A stretch of DNA of 64,000 nt. Source: Actinomycetes bacterium. Lineage in GTDB: Bacteria; Actinomycetota; Thermoleophilia; BMS3ABIN01. The stretch is taken from contig JAJYXB010000008.1 of NCBI GenBank assembly GCA_021791195.1, positions 10,921 through 74,920 of the forward strand. The letters run 5' to 3'. Positions 15,387-55,425 of the stretch are shown here, in pieces. Below the pieces are notes generated by a model. The model did no database searches and was not told the DNA's origin. It worked only from the letters and a program-made list of their open reading frames with translations. Position 1 is the first letter of the stretch; each line of letters begins with the position of its first letter. A program made the translations under genes and the position numbers.

Positions 15387-15452
15387 TGGCCGTGACCGGG
15401 GCGTGCGCCCCGGCCCGGCGCCTGATCCGCCCAGCGCCGCCCGGTTTTTCCC

Positions 15453-15724: not shown

Positions 15725-16321
15725 ATGGCGGTGCCGTTGATCTCCGCGTCGCTGCTGTCGCTGCTGGCGGTGGGCGTCTCCGTCTATCTTGCCCTGTTCG
15801 CCGGCAGATCGCTGCTGCCCGGGCCACTTGCGGGAACGGCAACCATGGAAGCGCCTCGGGTTTCGGTGAACGTTCCGGCGCCGGCAACAACCCCCGCCGG
15901 CCAGCCCGCATCCACACAGGTCGCTCCAGGCAGCGATGCGCCGTCCGCGAGGCCGCTGGCCACATCCTTTATTCTTCAGGCGGTAACTCCTCCCGCGCGC
16001 ACGCAAGCAGCAGCGGCGCCTGTGCCGGCCGTGGAAGCGCGCCGGCCGGAGCCAGCGACAGCGGAGGACCTGACGGCCGGAGCGGCCGGGACACAGAAAA
16101 ATCACGCGATAGCATCCGCAGAAAGTCCGGATAAATCTCCCCGTTTGTACGAAAGCAGCAAGAAGACCGGAACCCCGGCCGGGAATGGAAACGGAAGCAT
16201 CAAAAGCAACGATTCCAGCTCAGGGGCAGAGGCAGCCGGAGAGGCAAGCCGCCCGGCGGCGGATCCCCCCTCCACAAAGGCGTGCCAAAACCACGCTGGC
16301 GGGAAAAGCAGCCGGCGCTGA
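15725..16321 (+). CDS. Hypothetical membrane-anchored Pro/Ala-rich low-complexity protein
   Basis: The only sizeable ORF in a 960-bp gap. It has an N-terminal TM helix followed by a P/A/S-rich tail. Coding status is uncertain. Confidence 0.3.
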   Translation: MAVPLISASLLSLLAVGVSVYLALFAGRSLLPGPLAGTATMEAPRVSVNVPAPATTPAGQPASTQVAPGSDAPSARPLATSFILQAVTPPARTQAAAAPVPAVEARRPEPATAEDLTAGAAGTQKNHAIASAESPDKSPRLYESSKKTGTPAGNGNGSIKSNDSSSGAEAAGEASRPAADPPSTKACQNHAGGKSSRR

Positions 16322-16345
16322 CAACGACTTAAGCGGAAGGCGCGG

Positions 16346-23752: not shown

Positions 23753-24907
23753 CTACCTGTAAGCCACGGGCGCGTCGCGCAGAAAATCATTAAAGCGCCC
23801 GGCGACGATCGCCTGCCTGGCTCTACGGGTCAAGTCTACCAGAAAAGTGACATTGTGTAGAGACAGCAGCTGCAGGCCGAGGATCTCCTTCTGCGTGATC
23901 AGATGGCGGAGGTAGGCGCGGCTGAAGCTCTGGCAGGCGTAGCAGCGGCAACCGGGCTCCAGGGGACCGTCCTGCAAGGCATGAACGGCGTTGCGCAGGT
24001 TGAGGCTGCCGTCTGAGGTGAAGGCGCGACCGTTGCGCGCCACCCGCGTCGGCAGCACGCAGTCGAACATGTCGATGCCGGCGGCGATCGCCTCGAGGAT
24101 GCCGGCAGGATCGCCCAGCCCCATGAAGTAACGCGGCTTCTCCGCCGGCAGCAGGCCGGCGGTGAAACGCATCGTCTCCAGCATCGCTGCGCGCTCCTCA
24201 CCGACGCTAAGGCCGCCCAGCGCATAGCCGCCGAAACCGAGCTCAATAGTGCGCTCGGCGCTCTCGCGGCGCAGATCGAGGTCGGTGCCACCCTGGACGA
24301 TGCCCATCAGCAGCTGATCTTCGCGTGCCTGCGCCCGCCGGCAGCGGCCGGCCCACTCCGCCGTGCGCAGCACTGCCTGGCGCAGATATCCGCGGTCGAC
24401 TGCGGCCGGGGGGCACTCGTCGAAACACATGATGATGTCCGCGCCGAGCCGCTCCTGGACCGCGGTGGCCATCTCCGGGGTGAAGAAATGAGCCGAGCCG
24501 TCATAGAGCGAGCGGAACTCGACGCCGTCCCCCCTGATGCGGGCCGTCTCCCCCAGGCTGAATACCTGGAAGCCGCCGCTGTCGGTGAGGATCGGACCTT
24601 CCCAGGACATGAACCGGTGCAGGCCGCCCATAGCCGCCACCGTTTCCACCCCGGGACGGAAATAAAGATGATAGGCGTTGGCGAGGATGACGCCGGCGCC
24701 GGCTTCGGCCAGGTCCCGCGGCGAGAGCGTCTTCACCGTCGCCCGGGTGCCGACCGGCATGAAACAGGGGGTCTCCACGGCGCCGTGCGGGGTCATGAGC
24801 ACAGCGGCGCGCGCCTCGCCCTGGCGGGCCTCGATTTCAAAGGAAAACGGGTTCACGACAGGTTCTATCTTAGCTGAAAACCCGGCCGGGCAGCCCGGCG
24901 CATGCAC
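23753..24907 (-). CDS. tgt: Queuine tRNA-ribosyltransferase
   Basis: TGT family zinc site (CxCxxC...H) and catalytic Asp motifs. The N-terminus may begin at VNPFSFEI. Confidence 0.9.
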   Translation of the reverse strand: MHAPGCPAGFSAKIEPVVNPFSFEIEARQGEARAAVLMTPHGAVETPCFMPVGTRATVKTLSPRDLAEAGAGVILANAYHLYFRPGVETVAAMGGLHRFMSWEGPILTDSGGFQVFSLGETARIRGDGVEFRSLYDGSAHFFTPEMATAVQERLGADIIMCFDECPPAAVDRGYLRQAVLRTAEWAGRCRRAQAREDQLLMGIVQGGTDLDLRRESAERTIELGFGGYALGGLSVGEERAAMLETMRFTAGLLPAEKPRYFMGLGDPAGILEAIAAGIDMFDCVLPTRVARNGRAFTSDGSLNLRNAVHALQDGPLEPGCRCYACQSFSRAYLRHLITQKEILGLQLLSLHNVTFLVDLTRRARQAIVAGRFNDFLRDAPVAYR

Positions 24908-24931
24908 GGAATTATCCTTCTACCGGTTTTC

Positions 24932-25888
24932 ATGTTACAATCGCCAAGAATGTTCCTCCACGGTAGCAAGACAATCATCGCGGTAATAGCCATCGCAGCG
25001 GTAGTGCTCGGATTCATCGGCTTCAATTCCCTGCAAGGCAACAACGCCTTCAGGATTCCGGCTGCCGTGTCCTTAAGCAAGGGAGCCGGCACCCCCTCGG
25101 GCCCGCCGTCCGCGCCATCGCCGCTGGCGGCAGCCGCAGCCCCGGCGCCCGCTGCGCGGCCAGCAGCCACACCAGCAGCCGTCCCCGCCGCGCCCACCAT
25201 TGGCAAGTACGCGGTCATCATCGGCATCGACTACGACCATTACGATTTCGGTGCGGTCCACTACGCCGACCAGGATGCCGGCAGCGTGTACCGGATGCTC
25301 ACCCAGCAGAAGGGCTTCCTGCCGCAGAACATCAGGCTGCTGCAGAACAACCAGGCGACGCACGACAACATCATGTCGGCGCTCAGCTGGCTGGTGACCA
25401 ACCCCGGGATCAACGCCAACTCCGAAGTCGTTTTCTTTTACAGCGGGCACGGACTGCGCAACGGCGCGGGCGCCGGCCTGAACATTCCCGGCTTCCCGGC
25501 GGCTTCGGCGCTGGTGCCGTTCGACTTCTACAATTATGACTACCACAAGGGCGATGGTCTGATCTGGGATGGTGACCTGGCCGACAAGCTCTCGCTCATC
25601 CATCCGCACCTGATGTGGGTCTCGATCGACAGCTGCTTCGCCGGCGGCTTCGTCCGCCCGGGCATCGCCGGTCCCAACCGCATCATCACGACCTCCAGCC
25701 AGGCCGACGAGCTTTCCAACGAGCTGCCCAGCGCCCAGCGCGGCGTGTTCACCAATTTCCTCGTCGATCAGGGCATAGACAGGGGACTGCCGATCGAACA
25801 GGCTTTCTGGGGCGCCTTCCAGCAGTCGCAGGCCTACCATCAGGATCCGCAGATCTCCGACAACTACCCCCAGAGCGGCGACCTCTAG
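24932..25888 (+). CDS. Membrane-anchored caspase-like cysteine protease (peptidase C14 domain)
   Basis: N-terminal TM helix, a Pro/Ala-rich linker, then a caspase His (FFYSGHGL) / Cys (SIDSCFAGG) dyad. Alternative starts at 24902 or 24950. Confidence 0.7.
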   Translation: MLQSPRMFLHGSKTIIAVIAIAAVVLGFIGFNSLQGNNAFRIPAAVSLSKGAGTPSGPPSAPSPLAAAAAPAPAARPAATPAAVPAAPTIGKYAVIIGIDYDHYDFGAVHYADQDAGSVYRMLTQQKGFLPQNIRLLQNNQATHDNIMSALSWLVTNPGINANSEVVFFYSGHGLRNGAGAGLNIPGFPAASALVPFDFYNYDYHKGDGLIWDGDLADKLSLIHPHLMWVSIDSCFAGGFVRPGIAGPNRIITTSSQADELSNELPSAQRGVFTNFLVDQGIDRGLPIEQAFWGAFQQSQAYHQDPQISDNYPQSGDL

Positions 25889-26266: not shown

Positions 26267-26941
26267 CTACGGCTCATATCCGGGCAGGAAGACCCAGAGG
26301 TCTTTTGTTATGAGCCACTGGCTATTATCTAACTCCAGGGTGACCGTATGCTGCTCCGCGTTGCTACCACCGCCTTCATCACGATTATTATTGTAATCCA
26401 TATAGTAGGTTTCGCTATATATATCTACGACCACGGTTGCTTTATCGCCCTGGACTGAGATCCCCTTATAATCCATCTTTGTGATTGTGCTTTCGGATCT
26501 GCCCACGCCGGCTGCGGCCGATTGCATTTCCACGTCGATGGTGTGCTGTCTCTTTTGTAATTCGCCAGAGGCAGCACTAAAATACCTGTTAAGATTATCC
26601 TTTAATTCCTGACTACGGCCTCGATTCTCATATAGCAACGTATCTCTCTCCGCTTGAAAAGCATCATGGACGACTTGCATTAGTTGCTCCCAGGTCTTTG
26701 GATCACCCGCCCATTCACGATCGCTCGGGTCATATTTTGGGGGCGCCTCAGCCAGAATGTTGGCAGTATCTTTTCGCCCCTCGACTGTAAAAGTCTGACC
26801 ATTTTTTTTAACTGTAAATACTTTAATATTTTGCTGATATGTGTCGCTGGCAGCGCTGTCTGCATGGTGAATTAAAAAAAGCGTCAAGGCCAAAGCTCCT
26901 GCCAAAAATGTCGCTATTAGTGCAATTATTATTTTTCTCAT
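26267..26941 (-). CDS. Hypothetical exported protein (signal-anchor) within the lower-GC insert
   Basis: 224-aa ORF with an N-terminal hydrophobic signal and AT-rich codon usage unlike the host genes. Confidence 0.5.
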   Translation of the reverse strand: MRKIIIALIATFLAGALALTLFLIHHADSAASDTYQQNIKVFTVKKNGQTFTVEGRKDTANILAEAPPKYDPSDREWAGDPKTWEQLMQVVHDAFQAERDTLLYENRGRSQELKDNLNRYFSAASGELQKRQHTIDVEMQSAAAGVGRSESTITKMDYKGISVQGDKATVVVDIYSETYYMDYNNNRDEGGGSNAEQHTVTLELDNSQWLITKDLWVFLPGYEP

Positions 26942-26958
26942 CTATTTTCCTGGCGGAT

Positions 26959-27192
26959 TCAAGTCTGAAGTGCAACGGTTAACATGGTTGACGTTTTGAA
27001 TAATACTTCATACGGAGTTTTGAATCCAAGCTTTTTCCTAGGCCTATGATTCAATCGATGCTCGGCCTCGGCGATCTCGTCGTTGGTGATAGTGGTAAAG
27101 TCGTGCTTCTTGGGGGAGTATTGCCGGATGAGCCCGTTGGTGTTCTCGTTTAGACCCCGCTCCCAGGAAGAGTAGGGATGGGCAAGATGCAC
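26959..27192 (-). mobile_element. IS30-family transposase C-terminal remnant (truncated pseudogene)
   Basis: HPYSSWERGLNENTNGLIRQY...RPRKKLGFKTPYEV matches the IS30 integrase-core C-terminus. The DDE core and N-terminus are absent. Confidence 0.7.
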
Positions 27193-36156: not shown

Positions 36157-36426
36157 TTAGCCCTCGATCTTCAGCTCCATGTCGGGAATCGCTGATGCGA
36201 TCCGCTTTAGTTGGTCCGCGCTGAAGCCGTTACCGTAAAGTCCCATGAAAATCTTCCCCTTCAGCTGCGCTGCGGTGATTCCCGGGTCTTGCCTCCTGAT
36301 GCCGATCTCCATCAGTTGCTTGGCCGTCTCGAACATGTCGCTGGCCATCTGAAGGCGCTCGGCGGGAGTGCGCTCGGTAAACATTGAGAGCCACAACTTC
36401 TCTACGGCGGGTGGGGTGTCACGCAT
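36157..36426 (-). CDS. Hypothetical 89-aa protein, partner of the upstream nucleotidyltransferase-fold gene
   Basis: Overlaps the upstream gene by 8 nt. Lower GC. No recognised domain. Confidence 0.4.
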   Translation of the reverse strand: MRDTPPAVEKLWLSMFTERTPAERLQMASDMFETAKQLMEIGIRRQDPGITAAQLKGKIFMGLYGNGFSADQLKRIASAIPDMELKIEG

Positions 36427-36970
36427 TCTGCTGAGCCTTCCTTAACAAACCATCCACTTCGAGCCGTTTGGCCCATTCATGGAGGTAATCGTAGTCGAGC
36501 TTTTCGTGGGCTTTCAGAATCTGCTCGACATACCTCATCTGAAATTCCGGTTCGGAGTCCTTTGCCCAAACAAGCTTGGACAGAATAAGGTCTTCCGCCG
36601 CGACGACCGTAACCGGGACATCGCCCATCTCGATTCGCTGTCTGCGCGAGAACTCCCTCAGCCGGTAATCCTCGTCCTTTCTCACGATGAAATCGAATTT
36701 GACCGCCGATTCGGTGTGAATGATGTTGAACATGTCATGTCGCGCAATCGCTTCCCGCACGGCATGTTCATCGATGTAGAAGTCTTCCTTAAAAATTCTT
36801 ACGAGTTTGTCAACTAGTTCGGAAGAAATGTGAAGCACCATGTCGATGTCCCTCGTCATCCTGGGGGCCGAGTAAAGTGACATTGCAATGGAGCCGGTGA
36901 GCATATAATCGATGCCCGCTTCGTCGAGTCTGGACGTTACAACTTTTAGCAGATCGAACTCGGTGGTCAT
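36419..36970 (-). CDS. Nucleotidyltransferase-fold protein (minimal NTase/Lnu-like: GS...DIDMV)
   Basis: DYMLTGSIAMSLYSAPRMTRDIDMVL matches the Pol-beta superfamily hG[GS]...DxD signature. 183 aa. Its start overlaps the stop of the truncated HEPN ORF. Confidence 0.5.
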   Translation of the reverse strand: MTTEFDLLKVVTSRLDEAGIDYMLTGSIAMSLYSAPRMTRDIDMVLHISSELVDKLVRIFKEDFYIDEHAVREAIARHDMFNIIHTESAVKFDFIVRKDEDYRLREFSRRQRIEMGDVPVTVVAAEDLILSKLVWAKDSEPEFQMRYVEQILKAHEKLDYDYLHEWAKRLEVDGLLRKAQQNA

Positions 36971-37182
36971 GGCTTAATGCTTGGTCGGATCAGTCCCGCT
37001 GCCTGAGCTCCTCCAGAAACCTTGCTTGCGGCCTCACCGATAATCTCAATGGATTTAATGAGCGAAAGTGTCAACTTTCGGTCCGCGTCGAGATCGCTTC
37101 TTGTCTTGCCAGATATAAATGAAACAGCCTCGCGGGCTGAATCGAGCATGTGGCGAAGGCGAATGATATCGTCAGGCAGCAT
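36967..37182 (-). pseudogene. Truncated HepT-like HEPN (DUF86) toxin gene lacking the C-terminal Rx4-6H motif
   Basis: IIRLRHMLDSAREAVSF...LSLIKSIEIIGEAASKV matches the N-terminal two-thirds of DUF86. The ORF ends exactly where the 183-aa gene starts. Confidence 0.5.
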
Positions 37183-37480
37183 ACTGAACTTCAGCCTCAG
37201 CGATGACGTCATCGCGAAAATAACGACTCAGATCCTCGGGTGTGCGCAGATCCGCTTTTCTGCCCAGCATTTCGGAAAGCTCCCGCTCCATGCGGGCGAG
37301 ACGGATAAAACCCGGAACATGACCTGGCTCGAACTCGACCAGCACATCGATATCGCTGTCGGGCCGGAAGTCGCTTCGCAAAACAGATCCAAAGAAGGCG
37401 AACTTGCGGATATGATTGCTGCGGCAAAAGTCGGCAATCTTTGACTTGGGAATTTCGATCTTTGGCTTCATCGATGTCAT
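37172..37480 (-). CDS. MntA-like minimal nucleotidyltransferase (antitoxin-type)
   Basis: [24 protein letters not shown] is the classic MNT motif. The ORF is open to 37696 with a GC-rich 72-aa N-terminal extension of unclear status. Confidence 0.6.
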
Positions 37481-37734
37481 TTCATTATCAGCACAAAAGC
37501 GGTGGCCACATTGATGGGTCTCGTTGTAAGCGGGGCTCTTGTAGGCGGCTTCGTTGTTGCGGAAGTTTTCCACCAGCTCGGCGATGCGGGCGCGGGTTTC
37601 GGCGGGCACTGCCAGACGCGGCGTTTCCTCGGGCGCATTTGGCGCGGCTTGCCGCGCTCCCGTAGACGCATCCATAGCTTGGCCGTCAGTTGACATGAAG
37701 CAATTATATCACCAGGCGCGGACGGGCTCGGGAA

Positions 37735-38355
37735 TTATTGCTTCCTTTTTGCCGGCGCCTGCTTCTCGGGAGCGCGCTTCTTCTTTGCCGGCGCCTCGGG
37801 ATTCCAGTGAAATCCGATCTGATTCTTCTTCGGCTTCGGGGGTTCCATCAGTTGGCGGATGGCTTCGAAGACGACGCGGAATTGGGCATCGTATTTCTTC
37901 TCCAGCGAGTCGAGTTTGCGGGCCAGATCTGCGTGCGAGTAGGAAATCCTTTTCAGGCTGACAAATGCTCTCATGATTTCGATATTGACGCTAATTGCCC
38001 GCTTGCTCCTGAGAACACTCGAAAGCATCGCAACACCTTGTTCGGTGAAAGCGTAAGGCAGATACTTAGCATGCCGGCCGCGCTGGGAATCACCCGGTAA
38101 ACCCGTGGCGGTGGATGAGAGGTTTTCTGACGCAAAGAAGCTTTTGGCCTTTAATGCCGTTAATTCCGCCTTTAATAGCTGGAACATGAAATCATCCGGA
38201 AACCTCTCAATGTTCCGTTTGACAGCCTGGATCAATACCCGATGTTCGACTTCATAGAGCCGGGCCAGGTCATCGCTCAACATTACCTTGTTTCCACGTA
38301 GAACAACGATCTTTTTTTCAACGACTTCTTCCGAAACAATTGCAATTTCTTTCAC
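37735..38355 (-). CDS. ORF6N (KilA-N-like) domain DNA-binding protein
   Basis: [42 protein letters not shown]...[15 protein letters not shown] matches the ORF6N domain. GTG start with GGGAGG Shine-Dalgarno. Lys-rich tail. Confidence 0.75.
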
Positions 38356-44977: not shown

Positions 44978-46201
44978 TCAGATGGCCATCAGCCGGACGA
45001 ACTCTTCCTGGAAAAACCGGTTCAGCGGCAGCGCCACATGCCGCGTCCGGCCGCGGATCTCCTCCAGCGCGGCGTGGCTCCGGGAGCCCAGCATCATCAC
45101 CGCTCCCTGGCAGGCAGCGTCGCCCACCACCTCGACACGGTCATCCGGAAGATCGGGGAACATGTTCAGCTGGCGGGCGTTTTCCAGGTTGATATAGCTT
45201 CCGAATGTGCCTGTAATCAGCATCCGCGACAGCGCCTCGGTGCCGAGTTTCTGCCTCAGCACCGAGATGGCCGCGTGCACCGATGCCTTCACCAGCTGGA
45301 AAGAGCGGATGTCGTGCTGGCTGATCGTGATCGGCTGATCGCCGCCGGCGATCACCACCGGCCCCTCCTCGAGCAGCCGGCCGCTGGCGTCCACCCGCCC
45401 GTGTCTTCTGAGTTCAGCGATGATGTCAATCAGTCCCGAACCGCAGATGCCACGCGGTTCTCCGCCGCCGACGACCTCGAAATCAAAACCGCTGCCCGCA
45501 AGCCTGGCCTTGTAGATCGCACCGGCGCTGGCCGACTGGCCGAATGACATGTGTGAATCCTCGTACGCGGGCCCCGCCGGACTGGAGGCGACCAGGACCC
45601 GCTCGCGGTTGCCCAGCGCCATCTCGCAGTTGGTGCCCACGTCCACGATCAGCTCCGGCGCCTCGCTGCCGGACATGCCGATCAGCAGGATATCAGCCAG
45701 CGCATCCGATCCCACAAAACCAAATATCGGCCTGGGCACAAACAGATTGACATCGGGCAGCGCCGCGTCCAGATCGTTCGCGGAACCGAAAAAATCACGC
45801 GCCCCCTTGAGATTGTAGGGCGTGCCGCACAGCGGCTCCGGATCGAGATCCAGCAGGAAAGCATACATGGCCGAGTTGCCGACGCAGGCCACCTCCGCGA
45901 TGTCAGCGTCAGTGATGCCCGCGTCGCGGCACAGCCGCCCGATCGAATCGCCGACGGCGCCGACCGCCTGCTGGTGCAGCGCGGCCCTGATTTCGGCGCT
46001 GCCGGCTGCCAGTCCCAGGCGACTGGCGATGTCAGCCCCGTGCTGCCGTTGCGGATTCGGAAACACCAGGGTATCGACCACCCGCGCATCGTCAAGATCG
46101 ACCAGGCGTGACCAGACGCTGGATGTGCCCAGGTCGATGGCAATCCCGTACCGCGCGCCCACTTCGGGCCTGCCGGCACCGGCTCTGCGTGTGCTATCCA
46201 C
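44978..46201 (-). CDS. ASKHA-fold ATPase-like protein (DUF4445/RACo C-terminal-domain-like) without an Fe-S domain
   Basis: N-terminal YGIAIDLGTSSV phosphate-1 motif in a 407-aa protein. The family assignment is tentative. Confidence 0.55.
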   Translation of the reverse strand: MDSTRRAGAGRPEVGARYGIAIDLGTSSVWSRLVDLDDARVVDTLVFPNPQRQHGADIASRLGLAAGSAEIRAALHQQAVGAVGDSIGRLCRDAGITDADIAEVACVGNSAMYAFLLDLDPEPLCGTPYNLKGARDFFGSANDLDAALPDVNLFVPRPIFGFVGSDALADILLIGMSGSEAPELIVDVGTNCEMALGNRERVLVASSPAGPAYEDSHMSFGQSASAGAIYKARLAGSGFDFEVVGGGEPRGICGSGLIDIIAELRRHGRVDASGRLLEEGPVVIAGGDQPITISQHDIRSFQLVKASVHAAISVLRQKLGTEALSRMLITGTFGSYINLENARQLNMFPDLPDDRVEVVGDAACQGAVMMLGSRSHAALEEIRGRTRHVALPLNRFFQEEFVRLMAI

Positions 46202-46628
46202 GGCGCCGGCCTCCGGCGCCCGCGGCGCCTGTTATTTTCTGCTCAAGCAATCGTGCTCCCTGGAGGTTTCCCGCCGCCAGCGGGAGAATCGACTCGTACT
46301 TGTACTCGCACAGGATACTTTACAGGAAATCGGCAAATCACACGTATATCCCGGCTCGCGAACATGAAAAATCTCCTCCGGACGCCGGGTCGCCGCCCAT
46401 CCTCGCTCTCCGCGCTGCGCCCCCGCGATATTTCGCCGATTTCCCTTTAAATGCAATGGAAACGGCTGTATTTCTCTGTTAGAATTTATGTGCGAGCATG
46501 GTTGCAGGGCGCTGGGAATGATCATTGGCAACCTGCGCACTTTAGCCTCTTCGCACTCCACACAACTAGGGAATTTAAGACTCGCGGGACCGCCTGTTCC
46601 GAAGGGGAGATTGCAAGGCTTGAAATCG

Positions 46629-48098
46629 ATGGTCATATTGCCGTCGTGGAAACCGGACGACATCTATCCGTCCAAAATAGCCAGCTCGGCGATCAGCTAC
46701 CAGCATCCACTGGGACCCCTCTATATCGCCACTTGCATCCAGGAAGCCGGCCATGAGGTCGAGCTGGTGGACGGCGCCTTCTGGACTCACGGTGAGATCC
46801 TCGACAAGGTGCGCCGACTCCGTCCGGGGTTTGTCGGCCTGTCCGCCAATGCCTCGATGTGGACAAAAGCGATGAAAGCGGCCGCCGGCATCAAGGCGAT
46901 CGACCCTTCCATCCACGTCAGCGCCGCCGGGCCCTATCCCTCCGCCGTGCAGGAAAAATCCCTCGAGCAGTGCCCCGAGCTGGATTCGATCGTCATCGGC
47001 GAAGGAGAGCTGACGGTTCCCGAGCTGATCGCGCGCCTGGAGCAGGGCGAGAGCCTGACGGGAGTCGCCGGAGTCGCCTTCCGGGCCGCCGACGGCACGA
47101 TCACGGTGAACGAACCCCGGCCGCTGATCGAGGACCTCGACATCATCCCTATCCCGCGGCGCGAGCTGCTGGGCGATTTTGACAAGTACGAGTCGCCGCC
47201 GGGAAATTACCGGCGCAAGCCGATTGCCATCGTCATGACTTCGCGCGGCTGCCCGGCCCGGTGCATCTACTGCTTCCAGATGAAAGGCGAACGCCGCATC
47301 CGCTATCGCAGCGTCGACAACGTCGTCCGCGAGGTCGAAGAGCTGGTCAACCACTACGGTTTCCGGGAGATCAGGTTCCTGGATGAGACCTTCACCGCTG
47401 ACCGCGAGCGCGCCATGGAACTGCTGCGGCGCTTCCGGGAGCTAAGGCTCGACTTCAGTTTCTTTGTCTCATCGCGTGTCAACACGGTTGACTATGAGCT
47501 GCTGCGTGAGATGAAGAAAGCGGGCTGCTGGGCTATCCTCTTCGGCGCGGAGAGCGGCGTGCAGAAGAACCTCAACACGCTGCGCAAAGGAGTCAAGCTG
47601 GAGCAGACGCGCACCGCCGTGGCGGCGGCCAAGAAGGCCGGCCTCAAGGTGACCACGCCGTTCATCATCGGCATCCCCGGGGAGACTTACGAAGAGGCGC
47701 TGGAAACAGTGGAGTTCGCCGTCCGGCTCGATCCGCACGTGGCCAACTTCCACACAATGGCTCCTTTCCCGGGGACGGAGCTCTACGATCACATTGAGAA
47801 ATATGGCACCATGTCATCAAACACGGATGATTACACTTTCGAAGGCGGAGCGTTCGTGCCCCACTCGATGACCCGCGAAGAGATCGAGCGGGTGCGCACC
47901 ATCGCCTTCCGGCGTTTTTATTCCCGCCCCGGCTTCATCCTCAGGCGCCTGCTGGCCGTCCGCAGCCTTTATGACCTGAAAACAGTGACAAAAGGGGCGC
48001 GCAGCTTCTTCTGGCTGTGGGCCAGGGGAGACACGCTCAGCATGAAACGGCCGGAGCCACGCAGCCAGGGAAACAAGGCCGGAAACCGCAGCGGATGA
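46629..48098 (+). CDS. B12-binding-domain radical SAM enzyme (class B)
   Basis: N-terminal cobalamin-binding Rossmann region, then the radical SAM CxxxCxxC (SRGCPARCIYC). The ORF opens at 46488. MVILPSW at 46629 is the likely start. Confidence 0.85.
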   Translation: MVILPSWKPDDIYPSKIASSAISYQHPLGPLYIATCIQEAGHEVELVDGAFWTHGEILDKVRRLRPGFVGLSANASMWTKAMKAAAGIKAIDPSIHVSAAGPYPSAVQEKSLEQCPELDSIVIGEGELTVPELIARLEQGESLTGVAGVAFRAADGTITVNEPRPLIEDLDIIPIPRRELLGDFDKYESPPGNYRRKPIAIVMTSRGCPARCIYCFQMKGERRIRYRSVDNVVREVEELVNHYGFREIRFLDETFTADRERAMELLRRFRELRLDFSFFVSSRVNTVDYELLREMKKAGCWAILFGAESGVQKNLNTLRKGVKLEQTRTAVAAAKKAGLKVTTPFIIGIPGETYEEALETVEFAVRLDPHVANFHTMAPFPGTELYDHIEKYGTMSSNTDDYTFEGGAFVPHSMTREEIERVRTIAFRRFYSRPGFILRRLLAVRSLYDLKTVTKGARSFFWLWARGDTLSMKRPEPRSQGNKAGNRSG

Positions 48099-49138
48099 AC
48101 GACTCTCCCAAATCCACGCCGGCGGTATCGGTTGTCATCCCGGTTTATAATGGCGCTGAAACTATCCGTCACGCGCTGAAAGCGGTGCATGAATCGACCT
48201 TCCGGGACTTCGAGATAGTCGTAGTCAATGACGGCTCGACGGACAACACCATGGATGTGCTGTCGGAGTGCGCCGGGCCCTATCCCTACAAGCTGGTGGC
48301 GCTCGACCACAACACCGGCGTCTCCCACGCGCGCAACGCCGGCGCCGCAGCGGCCAGCGGCCGCATTCTCCTCTTCATCGATGCGGACTGCGTGGTCATG
48401 CCGCCGACGATACAGCGCTGCGTCGAGCGCCTCACGCAGAGCGATTGCATCTGCGTCGGCGGCGCGTATACCAGCGCCGCTTCCTTCGACAAGGATTTCT
48501 TCAGCCAATTCCAGTCGCTTTACATCCATTACGTGGAGACCAAGAACCAGTTCCCCGACTACATCGCCACCCATTGCATGGCCATGCGCAAGGATGACTT
48601 TGAGGGCTACGGCGGGTTCATCGAGGATTCTTTCATCGGCCATCAGGCCAGCGTCGAAGATGTGGAGTTCTCCCACCGGATGCTCCGCGCCGGTCACTGC
48701 CTGACGCGGCCCGCTGATATCCAGGTGATGCACATCTTCCGCTTCACATTCGCCAAGTCCATCAGGAACGCCATCAAGAAGAGCAAGTACTGGACGATGT
48801 ATTCGCTGCACAACAGGGATGTGATGAAGGACTCGGGTGCCGCCTCCTATGAACTCAAGATCGATGTCGTCACCCAGACATTAAATCTGGCGCTGGTGAT
48901 CGTGGCGGTGGCCACGCGCTTCTGGTGGCTGCTGCTGCCGGTACCGGTCCTGTTTGCGCTGAACATTGGCACGAGCTACGGGCTGCTGCGCCTGTTCAAG
49001 CGCGAGCGCGGCTGGGGTTTTTTCCTGGTCGCGACGGGATACTACCAGTTCGTCTATCCGGCCGGCGTGGCCTACGGCTCCCTGATTGGCACGCTAAAAT
49101 ACATCTGGGAAGTGAAAATCCTGCGCCGATACCGGTAA
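48095..49138 (+). CDS. Family-2 glycosyltransferase with C-terminal TM helices
   Basis: VSVVIPVYNG...VVNDGSTDNT...DAD GT-A motifs. ATG overlaps the upstream stop (ATGA). Confidence 0.85.
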   Translation: MNDSPKSTPAVSVVIPVYNGAETIRHALKAVHESTFRDFEIVVVNDGSTDNTMDVLSECAGPYPYKLVALDHNTGVSHARNAGAAAASGRILLFIDADCVVMPPTIQRCVERLTQSDCICVGGAYTSAASFDKDFFSQFQSLYIHYVETKNQFPDYIATHCMAMRKDDFEGYGGFIEDSFIGHQASVEDVEFSHRMLRAGHCLTRPADIQVMHIFRFTFAKSIRNAIKKSKYWTMYSLHNRDVMKDSGAASYELKIDVVTQTLNLALVIVAVATRFWWLLLPVPVLFALNIGTSYGLLRLFKRERGWGFFLVATGYYQFVYPAGVAYGSLIGTLKYIWEVKILRRYR

Positions 49139-49201
49139 ACTTGGTAACGGCACCATTTTTTGCATGGCCTTCGGGCTCGTGCCAAACCAACTGACTCGCT
49201 C

Positions 49202-50314
49202 ATGTACTCACCCATCAGGCATATCCCGCAGGTTTTTCTCAAGAACCGGCCGCTGCAGTTTACATTATTTGTAACCGCGCGCTGCAACTCTCGCTGCCCC
49301 TTCTGTTTCTACTGGCAGAACCGCCATGCTCCCCGCCAGGAGCTGACCCTGGACGAGATCGAGCAGGTGGCGCGCTCCATGGACAGCCTGCTCTGGCTGC
49401 TGTTCTCCGGCGGCGAGATCTTCATGCGCCAGGATCTGCCCGAGATAGTCGAGTGCTTCTACCGCCACACGCACCCGGTAATCATCACCCTGCCCACCAA
49501 CGGACTCGCGCCGGGGCTGATCATCCCCAAGATGGAGAGGATTCTGGCAGCTACGCCGGAAAGCGCTGTCGTGGTGAAGGTATCGCTCGACGGCATCGGC
49601 GATGAGCACGACAGGCTGCGCAACACGCCCGGCAGTTTTGAAAAGGCGATGGAGACCTGGACAGGGCTGGAGCGCCTGGGGCGGCGGCACCAGAACCTGC
49701 AGATCGGCATCAATACGGTATTCTGCCGCGAGAATCAGAACCGGATGGACGAGATCATCGATTATGTCAACGTCCTCCCCGGCTGCGAGACGCACACCAT
49801 CTCGCTGGTGCGTGGCGACCCCGCCGATGCCGGCGCCAAGGACGTCGACCTGGAAAAGTATCGCCGCGCCATCGAACGGCTCGAGACCGACTTGAAAGGG
49901 TCGCGGCCCAAGATGTACCATTTTAACCTGGCGCGGCTGAAATCCGCCCAGGACCTGGTGCAGCGGCGCCTGATTTACGAGACTGTGCGGCAGGGCCGGC
50001 GGCAGCTTCCGTGCTATGCCGGCCGGCTGGCCGCCGTCATGAATGAAGAGGGGGACGTCTTTCCGTGTGAGATTCTCACCGAGACTTTCGGCAACGTACG
50101 CGCAGCCGGATATGACCTCATGCGGGTTTTCCGGTCGGAAGCAGCAGACCGGATCAGGGCGGGTATAAATCAATCGGGCTGCTACTGCTCACACGAATGC
50201 TATTTCGTCACAAATATCCTGTTCAATCCCAGGGTGTATCCGCGGGTCCTGAAGCAGCTGCTGGACCTGAGGCAGACCCGGCAGCCGGCCACCGGGAAGG
50301 ACGCAGTCCGGTGA
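49202..50314 (+). CDS. Radical SAM protein with C-terminal SPASM/twitch-like Cys cluster
   Basis: CNSRCPFC (Cx3Cx2C) plus C-terminal CYAG...C...CYCSHEC cysteines. Confidence 0.8.
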   Translation: MYSPIRHIPQVFLKNRPLQFTLFVTARCNSRCPFCFYWQNRHAPRQELTLDEIEQVARSMDSLLWLLFSGGEIFMRQDLPEIVECFYRHTHPVIITLPTNGLAPGLIIPKMERILAATPESAVVVKVSLDGIGDEHDRLRNTPGSFEKAMETWTGLERLGRRHQNLQIGINTVFCRENQNRMDEIIDYVNVLPGCETHTISLVRGDPADAGAKDVDLEKYRRAIERLETDLKGSRPKMYHFNLARLKSAQDLVQRRLIYETVRQGRRQLPCYAGRLAAVMNEEGDVFPCEILTETFGNVRAAGYDLMRVFRSEAADRIRAGINQSGCYCSHECYFVTNILFNPRVYPRVLKQLLDLRQTRQPATGKDAVR

Positions 50315-52071
50315 CCGCCGGCGGATCGGGCCTGACGCCGGCGGTGGCGCAGCCAGAGCGCGACTTTGCCCCGCGTATGGCATCGCCGGCCCGCACGCGG
50401 GCGCGATCCCCGCGGCTGGCACTGCTGGTGAGCCTGGGGTGCGTGCTTGCTTTCGTGCTGCTGATCACGCTGCCGTTCATCGGCCAGGCACTGCATCTGG
50501 ACGATTTCCTCTTCTGGGACTTCGCCCGCAACAACCTCGATCACCCGCTGCAGCAGCACCTGTCCGGCTTCCATCTGATGGGCCAGAATGTGGCCAGCTT
50601 CCGCGATACGCATCCGCCGGTCGACGAACTGTATCTGTCGCTGATCATGCGCGTGACCGGCTCCACCGATTCCGCGGTGGCGATGCACCTCGGCTTCATC
50701 ATTTTCCCGCTCATCACCGGCCTGTCGATGTTCTTCCTGTCCCGCCGCTTTATTCGCAGCGCGCTGCTGGCGACGATCATGCTGCTGGCCACGCCGGCAG
50801 TGATGGTGATGTCGCACAACCTCATGGGCGACCTGCCGATGACCGCTTTCTGGCTGGCCGCGACGGCGCTCTACATCTACGGCGCCGACCGCGGCGACTC
50901 CCGGCTGCTCGCAGCGGCGGGCCTGGCGGCGACGCTGGCGATCTTCACCGGCTACCAGGCGCTGGCGCTGATCGTGCTGCTGCCTTTCTACAGCTGGCTG
51001 ACCGGGCGGCTTTCCCTCAAAACGCTGCTGCCGCTGGCGCTGCCGGTGATCAGTTTTGGCCTCTTCAGCTGGTACAACCTGGCGGTATATGACGCCCTGC
51101 CCAGGTTTTCGCACGCTCAGGGCCTCAGCTTAAGGGGCGCCGACATCTTCACCCGGCTGAAGGGCCTGCTCGCGGGGACAGGCGGCGCGACGGTTTTCCC
51201 GCCGGCGATGGCCGCACTCTTTGCCCTGCGCCGGAAAAGATATCTGCTGCTGCCGGTGGTGGCCGCGGGCGCGGTGGCGCTGACGCTTTATCAGCGCGAC
51301 ACCATTGCCTTCCCGGTCCCGACGGCGATCCTGTTCGCCGTCTTCGTCACCGCGGCGGCGATGGTCCTGCTGATGATAACCACAGAAGCAGCGGTCCAGG
51401 TGCGCCGCCGGCTGCGGCATCGGGAAACCGACCGCGACTTCCTCTTCCTCGCCGGCTGGATCGTAACGATCGCGGGCGCGATCTGCCTGCTGCTGCCGGA
51501 GGCCAGCGCCAAGTACTACCTGCCGTTCCTGGCGCCGGTGGTCCTGCTGATGTTCCGCGAAGCTGAGGCGGTGATCAGGCCGGCGTTCACGCTGCGGGCT
51601 ATCGTCATCGCCGCCATCGCCGGCACGCTGATCACCGGCCTGGCGCTGTCGGCAGCTGATTATCAGCTGGCCAAGGCTTACAAGGATTATGCCCGGAGCA
51701 TCAGCGCCCGCGCCCAGACCGGCGGCACCGTGTGGTTTGTGGGCGAGTGGGGCTTCCGTCACTACATGGAGGCCCAGGGATACAAATACCTCACCACCGC
51801 TGACACGTCTCCGGCCAACGGGGACCTGGTGGTCAAGGCGGGGTTGATGGACTGGCCGCTGGATCCTTCGGTGACCAGCCGCATGCGGCTGGTGTCGGAC
51901 ACGACTACTGAATGGGATTTCCCGGTGCGTTCGATGAACTTCGCCAGCAGCGCCGGCTTCTACGGCAGCTTCTGGGGCCTGCTGCCCTTTTCCATCACGG
52001 ATCAGCCCCTGGAGCACTTCCAGATCTACCGGCTGGAACCAGCCCCGCAGGCCGGCACGCCCCAGCCCTAG
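50311..52071 (+). CDS. Polytopic membrane glycosyltransferase, GT-C fold (GT39/83 ArnT/PMT-like)
   Basis: At least 10 TM helices and a C-terminal soluble domain. GTG start overlaps the upstream TGA (GTGA). An ATG alternative is at 50380. Confidence 0.65.
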   Translation: MTAGGSGLTPAVAQPERDFAPRMASPARTRARSPRLALLVSLGCVLAFVLLITLPFIGQALHLDDFLFWDFARNNLDHPLQQHLSGFHLMGQNVASFRDTHPPVDELYLSLIMRVTGSTDSAVAMHLGFIIFPLITGLSMFFLSRRFIRSALLATIMLLATPAVMVMSHNLMGDLPMTAFWLAATALYIYGADRGDSRLLAAAGLAATLAIFTGYQALALIVLLPFYSWLTGRLSLKTLLPLALPVISFGLFSWYNLAVYDALPRFSHAQGLSLRGADIFTRLKGLLAGTGGATVFPPAMAALFALRRKRYLLLPVVAAGAVALTLYQRDTIAFPVPTAILFAVFVTAAAMVLLMITTEAAVQVRRRLRHRETDRDFLFLAGWIVTIAGAICLLLPEASAKYYLPFLAPVVLLMFREAEAVIRPAFTLRAIVIAAIAGTLITGLALSAADYQLAKAYKDYARSISARAQTGGTVWFVGEWGFRHYMEAQGYKYLTTADTSPANGDLVVKAGLMDWPLDPSVTSRMRLVSDTTTEWDFPVRSMNFASSAGFYGSFWGLLPFSITDQPLEHFQIYRLEPAPQAGTPQP

Positions 52072-53489
52072 CGGAACACGCGCCTGGCAGCGTGCACGTA
52101 TTCGCGCAGCGCCCACCACGAATTCAGCTTTCTCAGGTGCCGGGCGATGATGCGCGGCCTGAAGTAAAAGCGGCGGTATGCCCGGCGCGTCGCCTGAAAC
52201 AGCTCCTCGCTGGACAGGTTCTGATGGCGGTAAACCGGCTCGCCCATGATGTCATAACGCCACCAGTCTTCCGTCAGCAGAAGACCGGCGGCGCGGAACT
52301 TCTCCCATTCATCCGTCCCGGGGAACGGCACCATCATCCCAAAGCCGGCGCTGTCCAGATCCAGCTGGCGGGCAAAGTCGATCGTCTGCTCGACCGTCTC
52401 TGGCGTTTCTTCCATGAAGCCAAAAAGGAAGTAACCATGAGGCGAGATGCCGGCGCGGCGGGTGTTGCCGACCGCCGTGGCTATCTTCTCCCTGGTGGTC
52501 TTCTTGATCTTCTTAAGCAGCTCGGGGTTGCCGACCTCGATGCCAAACTGCATCTGCCAGCAGCCGGCTTTTTTTGCCCACGTCAGCATCTCCGGATCTA
52601 CCTCGCTGGCGCGGCTGTTGCAGGTCCAGGCGATGTCGAGGCTGCGCTCCTGGATCAGGCTGCACATCTCCCGCAAACGGTTGCGGCCGCAGATCATCGA
52701 CGGATCACGGAACGAGAACGAAGTCACCCCGAAAGCGCTGTTCAGCCATGACAGTTCATCGACCACATTGCGGGCGCTGCGCAGACGGTAACGCTTGCCC
52801 TGTTGCGTGGTGACATCGCAGAAGGAACAACCGTAGGGGCAGCCACGGCCGCTGACGATGGAGGAAAAATTCCCCTTCTTGCCCCAGTTGAGGAAAGGGT
52901 TGTAGAAAGACGGTTCCGGCAGCAGATCATGAGCCGGGAATGGCAGGGAGTCGAGGTCTTCCAGGGCCTGCCTGGGAGCCGTCGCTCTGACCTCGCCGCC
53001 CTGGCCGAGAACCAGCCCCGGGATCCGGCCCAGGTCGCCCCCGGTAACCACCGCGTCGCATACCTCGGCCGCCGGCAGCTCGCCCTCGCCGATCACGGCC
53101 ACGTCCACGTCAGGGCTGGCAGCCGCCTGCGCCGGCAACGCCGTGACGTGGGGACCGCCCACGACAGTGAGGATGTTCTCATCGACGCTCTTGGCCAGTG
53201 CCGCCAGCGCCTCAGCGTCGTGCCACTGCGGCGTCAGCGCCGAGATGCCCACCACCCGGGGGTTGAAACTCTCGATGCGCTCGCGGATCCTGGCGGCCGG
53301 CGTCCCCAGCGAATAGCCGTCGACTACCTGGACTTCGTGACCCGCCGCGCGCACCGCTGCCGCCACATAGGCCAGCCCCAGCGGCTGGGTGGTGTTCCAC
53401 GGCCGCTCGACCGCGCCTTTAAACAGCCCGCGAGGCGGGGTGAACAATAAGACTTTGCAGCCCTTGTCTGCGTTGCCGCTCAACCGCAC
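52068..53489 (-). CDS. B12-binding-domain radical SAM enzyme (second copy, convergent)
   Basis: B12-binding N-terminal domain plus SGRGCPYGCSFC. Its 3' end overlaps the GT-C gene's 3' end by 4 nt. Confidence 0.85.
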   Translation of the reverse strand: MRLSGNADKGCKVLLFTPPRGLFKGAVERPWNTTQPLGLAYVAAAVRAAGHEVQVVDGYSLGTPAARIRERIESFNPRVVGISALTPQWHDAEALAALAKSVDENILTVVGGPHVTALPAQAAASPDVDVAVIGEGELPAAEVCDAVVTGGDLGRIPGLVLGQGGEVRATAPRQALEDLDSLPFPAHDLLPEPSFYNPFLNWGKKGNFSSIVSGRGCPYGCSFCDVTTQQGKRYRLRSARNVVDELSWLNSAFGVTSFSFRDPSMICGRNRLREMCSLIQERSLDIAWTCNSRASEVDPEMLTWAKKAGCWQMQFGIEVGNPELLKKIKKTTREKIATAVGNTRRAGISPHGYFLFGFMEETPETVEQTIDFARQLDLDSAGFGMMVPFPGTDEWEKFRAAGLLLTEDWWRYDIMGEPVYRHQNLSSEELFQATRRAYRRFYFRPRIIARHLRKLNSWWALREYVHAARRVFR

Positions 53490-53734
53490 CCTCCCCTGGA
53501 TGTGCCTGTTTCCCGCCTCACTTGCGCGCCTTGCCGCCGAACGGCGGATTCTCCCCCGGCGCCAGCGGTTCGCCGGTACACTGACCGCCAGCAGACGACG
53601 ATTCGTTACGGGAATCTAAATCTTCACCGGCAACCCTGGCCGGAGAAGATGTTGAAGGATACCTGAGCCGGCTGAACGCCAGCGTTCGTTTTCTAACCGA
53701 ACTTACATGATGAGTTTAAAGAAAATCAGGCCGG

Positions 53735-54406
53735 CTAGCAACCGGTTTCGCCGCCAGAACCGGGCAGGTGCTTGCCGCCCAGCAGCTCCCGGCAGATCGC
53801 CAGCGTGCCCTTGACGTCGCTGGCGAAGGCATCGACGCCCACCTCCTGGGCCAGCTCCTCGGAGTGGGCGGCGCCGCCGGAGACAACCTTGACGCGGTCG
53901 CGCAGGCCGGCCGCTTCAAGAGCGCTGAGGACATCGACCAGCGCCTGCCTGGTCGAGGTAGTGAACGCCGAAAGCAACAGCAGATCGGCATCGACCTCCT
54001 TCACCCTGGCGACGAATTTGTCGGCGGAGACGTTGACGCCGAGGTCGTGCACCTCATATCCGGAAGCCCTGAGCGCGGAGATGATGATGTCCTTGCCGAT
54101 GTTGTGGATGTCTCCCCTGACCGTGCCCATGACGACGACGCCGGCGTACTCCTGCCGGCGCTCGAACAGATAGGGATCAAGCACCTGCAGCGCCCGCTCC
54201 ACGGCAGCGGCCGAGCGCAGCATCTCGGGAATGAAATATTCGCCGGTTTCATACTTGCCGCCAACTTCCTCCATGGCGGCGGAGAGGCTGGCGATGACTT
54301 CGTCCGCGGACGCCTTGCCCTCGCTGGCGATGCCAGCGGCGATACCCGCGGCGCCGTCCGCGTCACCGGCGATCACCGCCTGTCTGAAATCTTCAAGCAG
54401 AGCCAT
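53735..54406 (-). CDS. Cobalamin-binding corrinoid protein (MtaC/MtbC-like; DxHxxG)
   Basis: B12-binding_2 helical cap plus a Rossmann domain with GDIHNIGKDI. Confidence 0.8.
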   Translation of the reverse strand: MALLEDFRQAVIAGDADGAAGIAAGIASEGKASADEVIASLSAAMEEVGGKYETGEYFIPEMLRSAAAVERALQVLDPYLFERRQEYAGVVVMGTVRGDIHNIGKDIIISALRASGYEVHDLGVNVSADKFVARVKEVDADLLLLSAFTTSTRQALVDVLSALEAAGLRDRVKVVSGGAAHSEELAQEVGVDAFASDVKGTLAICRELLGGKHLPGSGGETGC

Positions 54407-55425
54407 TATGCATCCCCGCCCTGGTATTTTCCGTAGCGGCGGCCGCTGGCAACCAGTGCGGCCAGATTTTCCTCCGGAGCGCTCAGCGGGACCGAATCTC
54501 CCGTACTGAGAATAAACTTTCCCCCCCTGGCGGCGTCAATCGCCGCGCTTACGGCAGCGTCGACATCGGCAGCCGTTCCCTTTTCGATAACCGAAACGGC
54601 GTCAATGTTTCCCTTGAGCACCACGGCGTCGCCGGCCGCCTCCCGCGCCTGCCTTAAGTCCACCGGCGAATCGATCTCCAGGACGGCCGCGCCGGTGGCG
54701 GCCATCAGCGGCAGGATGGGCAGGCTGTTGCGGCAGACATGCAGGATCACCGGGATCCCCTCCAGGCCGGCCACCGCCTCCCGCTCGGCCGGATAGGCGA
54801 ATTCGCGGTAGTGGTCGGGCGAGATCATGCTGGTGGAAGCAAACGAGTCCTTCACTACCACGGCGTCGACGCCAGCTTCGGCCAGCGCCCGTCCCACCGC
54901 CAGAGTCGCCGGCAGGCAGGCTGCGATCAGGTCACGCACCAGTTCCGGGTCACGGTAAAAATCGCCCATGAAATCAAGCAGGCCGCGGACGGTGGCGGCG
55001 TACTCGAACGGCGACCGCACCGCCCCGAGGATGACGCTGTCGCCACCGGCAAGAGCCACCAGCCGCTCGACCGGCTCCATCTTGCCGCCGGACCAGGGAT
55101 CGGGGACGGTGATCTTTTCCAGATCGGCCCGGGTCTCGACCAGCCGGTCCGTCACCAGCGGCACCTCATTGCCCTCGATCTGCACCGGGCAGCCGAGCAC
55201 TTCCGGCGCCGGCCCCAGGCCCATCTCGGCCACCACCCCATCCATGCCGAAACGCTCCAGCGCCAGCGCCAGGGCGCCGGCCAGGCAGTCGTTGTCCTGC
55301 CAGCATTCGTCGCTGGGACGCCCGGTCAGCCCGGGCGCGAAAAAGCCGTCGACGACCGGGATGACGGGGACCATATCGGGGATCTCGCCTGCCAGCACGG
55401 CCTGAAAGCGCTCACGGGAGTTCAT
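54406..55425 (-). CDS. URO-D/MtaA-family methylcobalamin methyltransferase
   Basis: Uroporphyrinogen-decarboxylase-like fold typical of MtaA/MtbA/CmuA. The start/stop pair overlaps the corrinoid gene (ATGA). Confidence 0.75.
   Translation of the reverse strand: MNSRERFQAVLAGEIPDMVPVIPVVDGFFAPGLTGRPSDECWQDNDCLAGALALALERFGMDGVVAEMGLGPAPEVLGCPVQIEGNEVPLVTDRLVETRADLEKITVPDPWSGGKMEPVERLVALAGGDSVILGAVRSPFEYAATVRGLLDFMGDFYRDPELVRDLIAACLPATLAVGRALAEAGVDAVVVKDSFASTSMISPDHYREFAYPAEREAVAGLEGIPVILHVCRNSLPILPLMAATGAAVLEIDSPVDLRQAREAAGDAVVLKGNIDAVSVIEKGTAADVDAAVSAAIDAARGGKFILSTGDSVPLSAPEENLAALVASGRRYGKYQGGDA

Follow-up and report, generated by a model that had tools for sequence, protein, structure and literature searches.

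This report concerns a 64,000-nucleotide stretch of contig JAJYXB010000008.1 from an uncultured Thermoleophilia bacterium (assembly GCA_021791195.1; the whole stretch is hereafter called the window), in which a corrinoid protein and a methyltransferase of the UroD/MtaA fold are encoded side by side, in the vicinity of cobalamin-dependent radical S-adenosylmethionine (SAM) enzymes and membrane glycosyltransferases. The window has a GC content of ~64%. Proteins identical to its UroD product are found in the Thermoleophilia metagenome-assembled genomes (MAGs) GCA_027392895.1 and GCA_023488545.1, and homologues of this product are labelled Thermoleophilia or Gaiellales. On the minus strand, proB, proA, nadD, an LCP/LytR gene and rsfS follow one another in this order, and 24 bp beyond rsfS lies the methyltransferase gene (54406–55425, minus strand; 339 amino acids (aa); Pfam URO-D, 4.9e-55). 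It is followed by the gene for a His-on corrinoid (cobalamin-binding) methyl-carrier protein (53735–54406, minus strand; 223 aa; B12-binding_2, 2.4e-14, and B12-binding, 2.4e-21). An initial annotation of this DNA had located both genes at these positions with correct domain assignments, including those of the activator described below, and the other genes it named are present as well. Its reading of the junction as ATGA has to be amended: the start codon of the corrinoid protein overlaps the methyltransferase stop by one base, as TAATG. The pair had also been described as flanked by B12-radical-SAM enzymes, which holds on one side, across a 245-bp gap; on the other side the neighbour is rsfS, and the second B12-radical-SAM gene is ~5.6 kb away.

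The gene beyond the 245-bp gap encodes a class-B radical-SAM enzyme, here numbered 2 (52068–53489, minus strand; B12-binding, 2.4e-26; Radical_SAM, 1.5e-20; CPYGCSFC at residue 217). The gap holds a weak terminator-like hairpin that covers the stop codon of the corrinoid protein gene (53731–53745, minus strand). This hairpin was found by a consensus scan only, which gave seven hits of the kind across the region where 2.7 would be expected, and it constitutes weak evidence for termination. A second operon on the plus strand converges on the first. It begins with class-B radical-SAM enzyme 1, which is HpnJ/BchE-like (46488–48098, alternative start 46629; Radical_SAM, 1.3e-27; B12-binding, 9.9e-18; CPARCIYC at residue 255), and continues with a membrane-anchored family 2 glycosyltransferase (GT2; 48017–49138, likely start ~48095; Glycos_transf_2, 2.9e-32) whose C-terminal hydrophobic helices lie at residues 282–311. 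A radical-SAM/SPASM enzyme is next (49160–50314, likely start ~49202; Radical_SAM, 9.8e-15; SPASM, 7.7e-4; CNSRCPFC at residue 42), and the operon ends with a GT-C membrane glycosyltransferase (PMT_2/ArnT-like; 50197–52071, likely start ~50311; PMT_2, 1.2e-10). The latter is polytopic, with ~9–10 hydrophobic segments, and is called with 586 aa in identical MAG contigs. Divergent from this operon, and ~7.5 kb from the corrinoid protein gene, lies the gene for a putative corrinoid reductive activator, a RACo-type ASKHA ATPase without an iron–sulfur (Fe-S) domain (44978–46201, minus strand; 407 aa; Raco_middle, 3.4e-33; RACo_C_ter, 1.2e-57). The open reading frames (ORFs) of the module, that is, of methyltransferase, corrinoid protein and activator, are intact, with a coding-type GC content at third codon positions (GC3) of 0.81–0.83.

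The closest solved structure to the methyltransferase is M. mazei MtaA (4ay7, 1e-22), and its AlphaFold2 model (predicted local distance difference test score, 91) matches MtaA with a Foldseek TM score of 0.88 (4ay7/4ay8). Scores are best against the MtaA/CmuA models and fall below every curated NCBIfam cut-off (TIGR01463, 150.7 vs 235.4; MtaA_Meth, 117 vs 400; MtbA, 92 vs 600). In the alignment to 4ay7 the His-x-Cys motif is retained (LHVCRN), and the third zinc-ligand cysteine, that of GCG, is replaced by an aspartate in STGDS (D310). With a score below the TIGR01463 cut-off and a His-Cys-Asp site, the enzyme does not merit the earlier label ‘MtaA-type’ in its strict sense. The residues H229, C231 and D310 are invariant in 12/12 aligned clade members and belong to 56 invariant columns across sequences 39–71% identical to the window enzyme, with ILS[TS]GD[ST] as the clade motif. 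At the same three columns, His-Cys-Cys was found in 132 and His-Cys-Asp in 93 of 239 tabulated sequences, a set that combines the matches of all three protein queries (RACo homologues included) with the top 150 profile matches and in which the His-Cys-Asp sequences are mostly Thermoleophilia homologues. In a profile search of 1.84 billion representatives, just three (at 50% clustering) stand out with more than 370 bits, and the scores of all others form a continuum from 307 bits down. Judged by sequence, these enzymes form a small clade distinct from His-Cys-Cys MtaA, here called the HCD clade after its three site residues.

The composition of this site bears on the substrate. UroD-superfamily S-methyltransferases have His-Cys-Cys sites, and in the O-methyltransferases a Cys is replaced by Asp or Glu (PMC10418091). 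By analogy, the His-Cys-Asp site is better suited to a hard nucleophile than to a thiol, which makes oxygen our leading guess for the nucleophile. D310 would then bind the metal. Coenzyme M is an unlikely substrate for the window enzyme, whose host is an actinobacterial MAG.

The corrinoid protein has the cap domain, the Rossmann domain and the DxHxxG motif (DIHNIG at residue 99) of its family. Its closest structures are 1y80 (3.9e-39) and 4jgi (6e-31), and it scores 151.9 against TIGR02370 (MtaC/MtbC/MtgC-like), below the cut-off of 215.3. It is thus a divergent member of the methyltransferase-cognate corrinoid proteins.

The ASKHA protein proved to be of the DUF4445/RACo type, as initially annotated, rather than a BadF-type activator or a sugar kinase; the claim that it has no Fe-S domain also holds, as its six cysteines are scattered and form no cluster motif. 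It matches the RACo structures 3zyy and 4c1n at 1e-52 to 5e-53 and aligns only to residues 207–615 of C. hydrogenoformans RACo (3zyy). The ASKHA motifs AIDxGT, DxGTNxE and ICGSG are conserved, the first of them 17 residues from the protein start. Orthologues within the Thermoleophilia lineage (392–442 aa) consist of just the two RACo domains, and homologues at two further loci described below, L031 (387 aa) and L032 (372 aa), share the short N-terminus, beginning at the first ASKHA phosphate motif. Most relatives at ≤39% identity are larger (500–640 aa) and have a Fer2 domain, in some cases together with the RACo linker. The activator is a naturally short form devoid of the ferredoxin domain; it is probably an active ATPase that draws electrons from a separate carrier, which would be needed because the protein has no Fe-S cluster of its own. 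A 143-aa ORF at 46232–46663 (minus strand) was considered as a detached ferredoxin and rejected: it has no Pfam or NCBIfam match, is uncalled in identical MAG contigs and lies in an AT-rich divergent promoter region.

Two observations at other loci touch on activation. At L065 (4315–5991), a 558-aa protein with FlpD and multiple 4Fe-4S motifs is encoded directly after the UroD gene, and no RACo is found there; this protein could take the place of a RACo-linked route in supplying electrons to activate the corrinoid. At L067 (148–4180), a further Fe-S-less RACo (39% identity) is followed by carbamoyltransferase and formyltransferase genes, and the short RACo of L031 likewise has a carbamoyltransferase gene nearby, which suggests an association of short RACos with genes for sugar tailoring.

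Both class-B radical-SAM proteins of the window combine a B12-binding domain with a Radical_SAM core and a CxxxCxxC motif. The equivalog scores of the window radical-SAM enzymes are all below cut-off (HpnJ, 231 vs 577); for enzyme 2, the best NCBIfam matches are HpnJ and BchE, far below cut-off. The segment at 46000–50000, which holds enzyme 1, the GT2 and the radical-SAM/SPASM gene, has a GC content of 0.60–0.61, compared with 0.64–0.66 in its flanks, and the GT2 and SPASM ORFs were missed by a GC3-based gene filter; the lower GC may reflect an older horizontal acquisition.

No cobalamin riboswitch or other Rfam element was detected at gathering thresholds in the whole window, nor were tRNAs. 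Likewise, the 64 kb yielded no pterin-binding methyltransferase and none of the MttB, MtaB or MtgB type (~30 genes in 1–40 kb and the genes of 40–64 kb were scanned, a few short ORFs remaining outside the scan), and the UroD-family gene is the single one in the window, as in related loci. The remaining scanned genes either lack a family match or belong to families of housekeeping, signalling or mobile-element functions. Thus, as the initial annotation had noted, the window holds no substrate-specific methyltransferase (MT1) with a corrinoid protein of its own. The assumption that the system needs an additional MT1 of the MtaB/MttB type is weak and finds no support: UroD-type enzymes are themselves MT1 or bifunctional in MtsA/MtsB, MtoB/MtvB, D. 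hafniense and mlp systems (PMC10418091 for the latter). M. barkeri MtsA performs both half-reactions with one corrinoid protein (10.1101/548461), MtoB and MtvB of aromatic O-demethylases are UroD-family, substrate-specific MT1 enzymes (PMC8630106), and D. hafniense methyltransferase I (MTase I) and its corrinoid protein shuttle O-methyl groups in both directions (PMC7783988). Because UroD-type enzymes serve as MT1 or carry out both half-reactions elsewhere, the absence of an MT1 gene is not anomalous by itself.

The neighbourhood recurs. In ~15 Thermoleophilia/Gaiellales MAG species the order is rsfS, UroD, corrinoid protein, zero to three radical-SAM copies directly after the corrinoid protein gene, then a convergent PMT_2, radical-SAM/SPASM, GT2 and radical-SAM, and finally the short RACo. 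Synteny inside this group could reflect inheritance alone. Scans of genome contigs and metagenomes returned mostly the same Thermoleophilia lineage, and independent contexts came from contigs retrieved through the clade members they encode. In one related locus (L008, 10001–12702) the order proA–nadD–rsfS–UroD is kept and a Transposase_mut gene occupies the place of the corrinoid protein and radical-SAM genes; L008 contains many fragmented genes, probably through assembly or frameshift errors.

The link with B12-radical-SAM genes proposed from the window extends outside this lineage, to L007, L031, L032 and L065. At L007 (GC 51%), the pair faces orthologues of the radical-SAM/SPASM, GT2 and B12-radical-SAM genes in convergent orientation (48–52% identity; 51% for the orthologue of class-B enzyme 1), surrounded by Polysacc_synt, Polysacc_deac_1 and CWB2 genes. 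An assignment of L007 to Firmicutes from its CWB2-domain neighbour was dropped, as a neighbour of this kind also occurs at L068, which carries genes of archaeal type. At L031 (GC 36%), the pair and a short RACo are accompanied by three class-B-like radical-SAM and four PMT_2 genes together with DegT, carbamoyltransferase and GDSL genes. At L032 (GC 43%, a ‘Woesearchaeota’ MAG), the pair and a short RACo occur with five or six radical-SAM genes, most with B12-binding domains, and one PMT_2 gene; here (6745–9206) the stop codon of the short RACo overlaps the start of a B12-radical-SAM gene as ATGA, a translational coupling that brings module and class-B enzyme genes closer together than at any other locus seen. 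At L065 (GC 43%), a B12-radical-SAM gene lies in divergent orientation to the corrinoid protein and UroD genes, which are followed by the FlpD/Fer4 protein and a GT2 gene.

Other contexts hold the pair and no radical-SAM gene nearby. None lies within 10 kb at L030 (GC 48%) or at the archaeal L064 (GC 47%), where C5-epimerase and DUF2334 genes are 6–8 kb off; none is present on the 5.7–9 kb contigs L066, L027 and L043 (GC 58–62%), of which L066 carries sucD, hemE and an STT3-like gene and L027 carries sucD and hemE; and none occurs within 4–5 kb at L068. Taken over nine distinct contexts, which span GC 36–64% and include bacterial and archaeal MAGs, class-B radical-SAM genes stand beside the pair in five, compared with 0/13 loci of other UroD relatives, each >5 kb (Fisher p = 0.005). 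Counting L031 and L032 as one gives 4/8 (p = 0.012). The Fe-S-less activator is also present in three of the five radical-SAM-positive contexts.

All-vs-all BLAST ruled out a single B12-radical-SAM orthologue travelling with the pair and returned several unrelated groups: L031 and L032 share orthologues, and the accompanying radical-SAM genes otherwise show 22–36% mutual identity. We also discarded the idea of ‘split’ radical-SAM enzymes that borrow the corrinoid protein as a B12 domain in trans, since the window enzymes have clear B12 domains of their own and the ~520-aa proteins of L031 and L032 retain weak B12-binding similarity. The latter are orthologous radical-SAM proteins (L031, 49–1614; L032, 5005–6564; 69% identity) with sub-threshold B12-binding matches (E = 7e-5 and 4e-4), possibly degenerate class-B enzymes. 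The neighbours of the pair are mostly glycan or lipid tailoring genes, and those of sugar tailoring include Polysacc_synt, Polysacc_deac_1, DegT, carbamoyltransferase, GDSL, STT3-like and C5-epimerase genes. The association of the pair with class-B radical-SAM and glycan or lipid tailoring genes is therefore real, though neither obligatory nor tied to one radical-SAM orthologue.

Several characterized systems resemble the module in part. Like MtsA/MtsB, it pairs one methyltransferase of the UroD/MT2 family with one corrinoid protein and has no separate MT1 (10.1101/548461); unlike the system of MtsA, which acts on thioethers and coenzyme M, it has a His-Cys-Asp site, a bacterial host without methanogenesis context, and radical-SAM and glycosyltransferase neighbours. 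With the type 1 mlp clusters of anaerobic bacteria and archaea, it shares an MtaA-like UroD methyltransferase, a corrinoid protein and the absence of a tetrahydrofolate (H4folate) methyltransferase, and it may share a Ram/RACE activator (PMC10418091). Those clusters have Mlp2 and Mlp3, His-Cys-Cys sites and sulfur or selenium neighbours, whereas the window has a single methyltransferase, a His-Cys-Asp site, and B12-radical-SAM and glycosyltransferase neighbours; its corrinoid protein is adjacent and its activator is encoded ~7.5 kb off and has no Fe-S domain. The second UroD-family gene of L066 is only a true hemE, and the terms ‘radical SAM’ and ‘glycosyl’ are absent from the mlp report (PMC10418091).

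In the O-demethylases MtvABC, OdmABCD and MtoABCD and in the D. hafniense shuttle, too, an MtaC-like corrinoid protein and a RACo-type activator occur together with a UroD methyltransferase I (MT I) whose site contains a carboxylate substitution (PMC8630106, PMC7783988). Unlike them, the window module has no pterin-binding methyltransferase II in the 64 kb or in related loci, no aromatic transporters and an activator without [2Fe-2S], and the likeness noted between its methyltransferase and MtvB, OdmB, VdmB and MtoB is that of the carboxylate ligand. The activator shares with RACo, AcsV and RamA the middle and ASKHA ATPase domains with their nucleotide-binding motifs, yet has neither the N-terminal [2Fe-2S] domain and linker of RACo nor the C-terminal 4Fe-4S of RamA, and so resembles the engineered N-terminally truncated RACo of 4c1n. 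The convergent operon recalls HpnI/HpnJ/HpnK or ArnC/ArnD/ArnT loci in its GT2, its B12-radical-SAM enzyme (HpnJ is the best NCBIfam match) and its GT-C, with a deacetylase in L007; unlike those loci, it scores far below the equivalog cut-offs and is accompanied by no hopanoid or lipid A genes. We know of no corrinoid methyltransferase module in HpnI/HpnJ/HpnK- or ArnC/ArnD/ArnT-type loci. From its gene content, the module would work like MtsA/MtsB, like the O-demethylase core of MT I, corrinoid protein and activating enzyme, or like an mlp cluster, yet it lacks defining features of each. Its recurrent vicinity suggests an undescribed partnership of a corrinoid kit with B12-radical-SAM and sugar-transferase genes; no coupling of a corrinoid protein, or of a module of corrinoid protein, UroD methyltransferase and RACo, with class-B radical-SAM loci was found described in our literature searches.

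The best explanation, which we hold tentatively, is a self-contained three-part corrinoid methyl-transfer module that works with the neighbouring radical-SAM/glycosyltransferase envelope pathway. In this proposal the UroD enzyme, a methyltransferase of the zinc type, would activate an oxygen or other hard heteroatom at its His-Cys-Asp metal site, and a methyl group would be exchanged between its substrate and the corrinoid protein, alternating between the Co(I) and CH3-Co(III) states. The methyltransferase would thereby do the MT1 job itself, or catalyse both half-reactions as do MtsA/MtsB or D. hafniense MTase I with its corrinoid protein. Whenever Co(II) arises adventitiously, the short RACo would restore Co(I) at the expense of ATP, with electrons supplied by a separate ferredoxin or flavodoxin. 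The probable task of the neighbouring pathway is to modify an envelope glycoconjugate or lipid linked to the membrane: the membrane GT2 may build a lipid-linked sugar, the radical-SAM enzymes may modify it, and the GT-C enzyme may transfer it outward, with O-methyl transfer to or from an intermediate of this pathway as the putative contribution of the module.

Several points weigh against this proposal. No methyl donor or acceptor is assigned to the module, glycan tailoring normally uses SAM-dependent O-methyltransferases, and the rule that makes aspartate a ligand of O-methyltransferases rests on a single preprint (PMC10418091). At L030, L064, L066/L027/L043 and L068 the pair stands without radical-SAM genes over ~4–10 kb on either side. 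The radical-SAM genes found with the pair belong to more than one orthologous group, a pattern that suits a generic service role no less than a single fixed step of one pathway. In addition, the pair in the window runs in the same direction as nadD and rsfS, both housekeeping genes, and transcription may end before the radical-SAM gene.

An independent methyl-scavenging or methylotrophy module is an unlikely alternative. It would be mlp- or O-demethylase-like, with environmental methoxy or methyl-chalcogen compounds as donors and a second methyltransferase elsewhere, and its adjacency to radical-SAM and glycosyltransferase genes would be incidental. The set of UroD methyltransferase, corrinoid protein and RACE-type activator without an H4folate methyltransferase is the published mlp architecture (PMC10418091); the corrinoid protein is closest to those of Moorella and Desulfitobacterium; the MAGs come, by their record titles, from anoxic subsurface sites; and the pair occurs alone at L030, L064, L066 and L068. 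Type 1 mlp clusters, however, need both Mlp2 and Mlp3 where this locus has one UroD methyltransferase, and the site is His-Cys-Asp rather than His-Cys-Cys. The neighbours moreover include no sulfur, selenium or aromatic-transport genes, the adjacency to B12-radical-SAM and glycosyltransferase genes recurs in four to five independent contexts, and the activator is embedded in the radical-SAM/glycosyltransferase clusters of L031 and L032.

A service role for the class-B radical-SAM enzymes themselves, a more specific version of what the initial annotation had proposed, seems to us slightly less likely still. A methyl group drawn from a cheap donor would be loaded by the UroD enzyme onto the corrinoid protein, and CH3-corrinoid would re-methylate the cob(I)alamin of these enzymes; or the corrinoid protein and the Fe-S-less RACo would deliver or reductively repair cobalamin. 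By either route, one of the two SAM molecules per methylation would be saved. Such a role fits the presence of the triad or pair with non-orthologous class-B enzymes in different organisms and the enrichment itself (p = 0.005). It also fits the zero to three paralogues straight after the corrinoid protein gene in Thermoleophilia, the ATGA overlap of RACo and B12-radical-SAM genes at L032, the divergent B12-radical-SAM gene at L065, and the three to six such enzymes around the module in L031 and L032. Against it, class-B radical-SAM methylases methylate their own cobalamin from SAM, and the window enzymes own B12 domains and best match the non-methylases HpnJ and BchE. Literature searches gave no precedent, four contexts have no nearby radical-SAM genes, and conservation of the metal site that activates the substrate implies that the enzyme acts on a genuine small molecule. 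In its most specific form, in which UroD, corrinoid protein and Fe-S-less RACo constitute a dedicated methyl-cobalamin relay (Co-to-Co, from a non-SAM donor) or an ATP-driven repair system for class-B radical-SAM enzymes, the idea is improbable. Decay into a non-functional methyltransferase remnant, which would account for the lost third zinc ligand, the missing Fe-S domain of the activator and the curated family scores below cut-off, is very improbable in view of the intact ORFs with coding-type GC3, the 56 invariant columns that include H229, C231 and D310, the conserved ASKHA ATP motifs and the confident AlphaFold2 model.

Elsewhere in the window, a low-GC islet at 36419–38355 (0.54, compared with ~0.64) carries AbiEii-like toxin, NTP_transf_2 and ORF6N genes and is probably a toxin–antitoxin or mobile remnant. 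Between the gene for a caspase-domain protein (24902–25888) and queA lies a stretch (26267–27192) with a low-GC gene for a 224-aa membrane-anchored hypothetical protein (26267–26941, minus strand) and a 77-aa fragment (26959–27192) that, by eye, resembles the C-terminus of an IS30-type transposase. A gene cluster at 12097–18313 encodes a 957-aa hybrid histidine kinase/receiver/GGDEF protein together with a stand-alone receiver and a protein of the HAMP-GGDEF type, indicative of cyclic di-GMP signalling; this cluster is unrelated to the module.

Class-B radical-SAM enzymes are among the largest enzyme groups with a poorly understood mechanism, and little is known of the way in which their cobalamin is loaded, methylated and maintained in a reduced state in the cell. 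A conserved module that accompanies them in several lineages is a concrete candidate for an accessory system. The locus also defines a small UroD subfamily (His-Cys-Asp, ‘ILSTGDS’) and a naturally Fe-S-less RACo, and helps to correct the annotations ‘uroporphyrinogen decarboxylase family’ and ‘2Fe-2S/4Fe-4S cluster protein’. If the relay or repair reading were true, the cobalamin radical-SAM chemistry of energy-limited anaerobes would be partly uncoupled from SAM. At the least, if the proposed partnership with the envelope pathway is true, a methyl transfer in an envelope glycan or lipid pathway would for the first time be seen to depend on a corrinoid instead of SAM.

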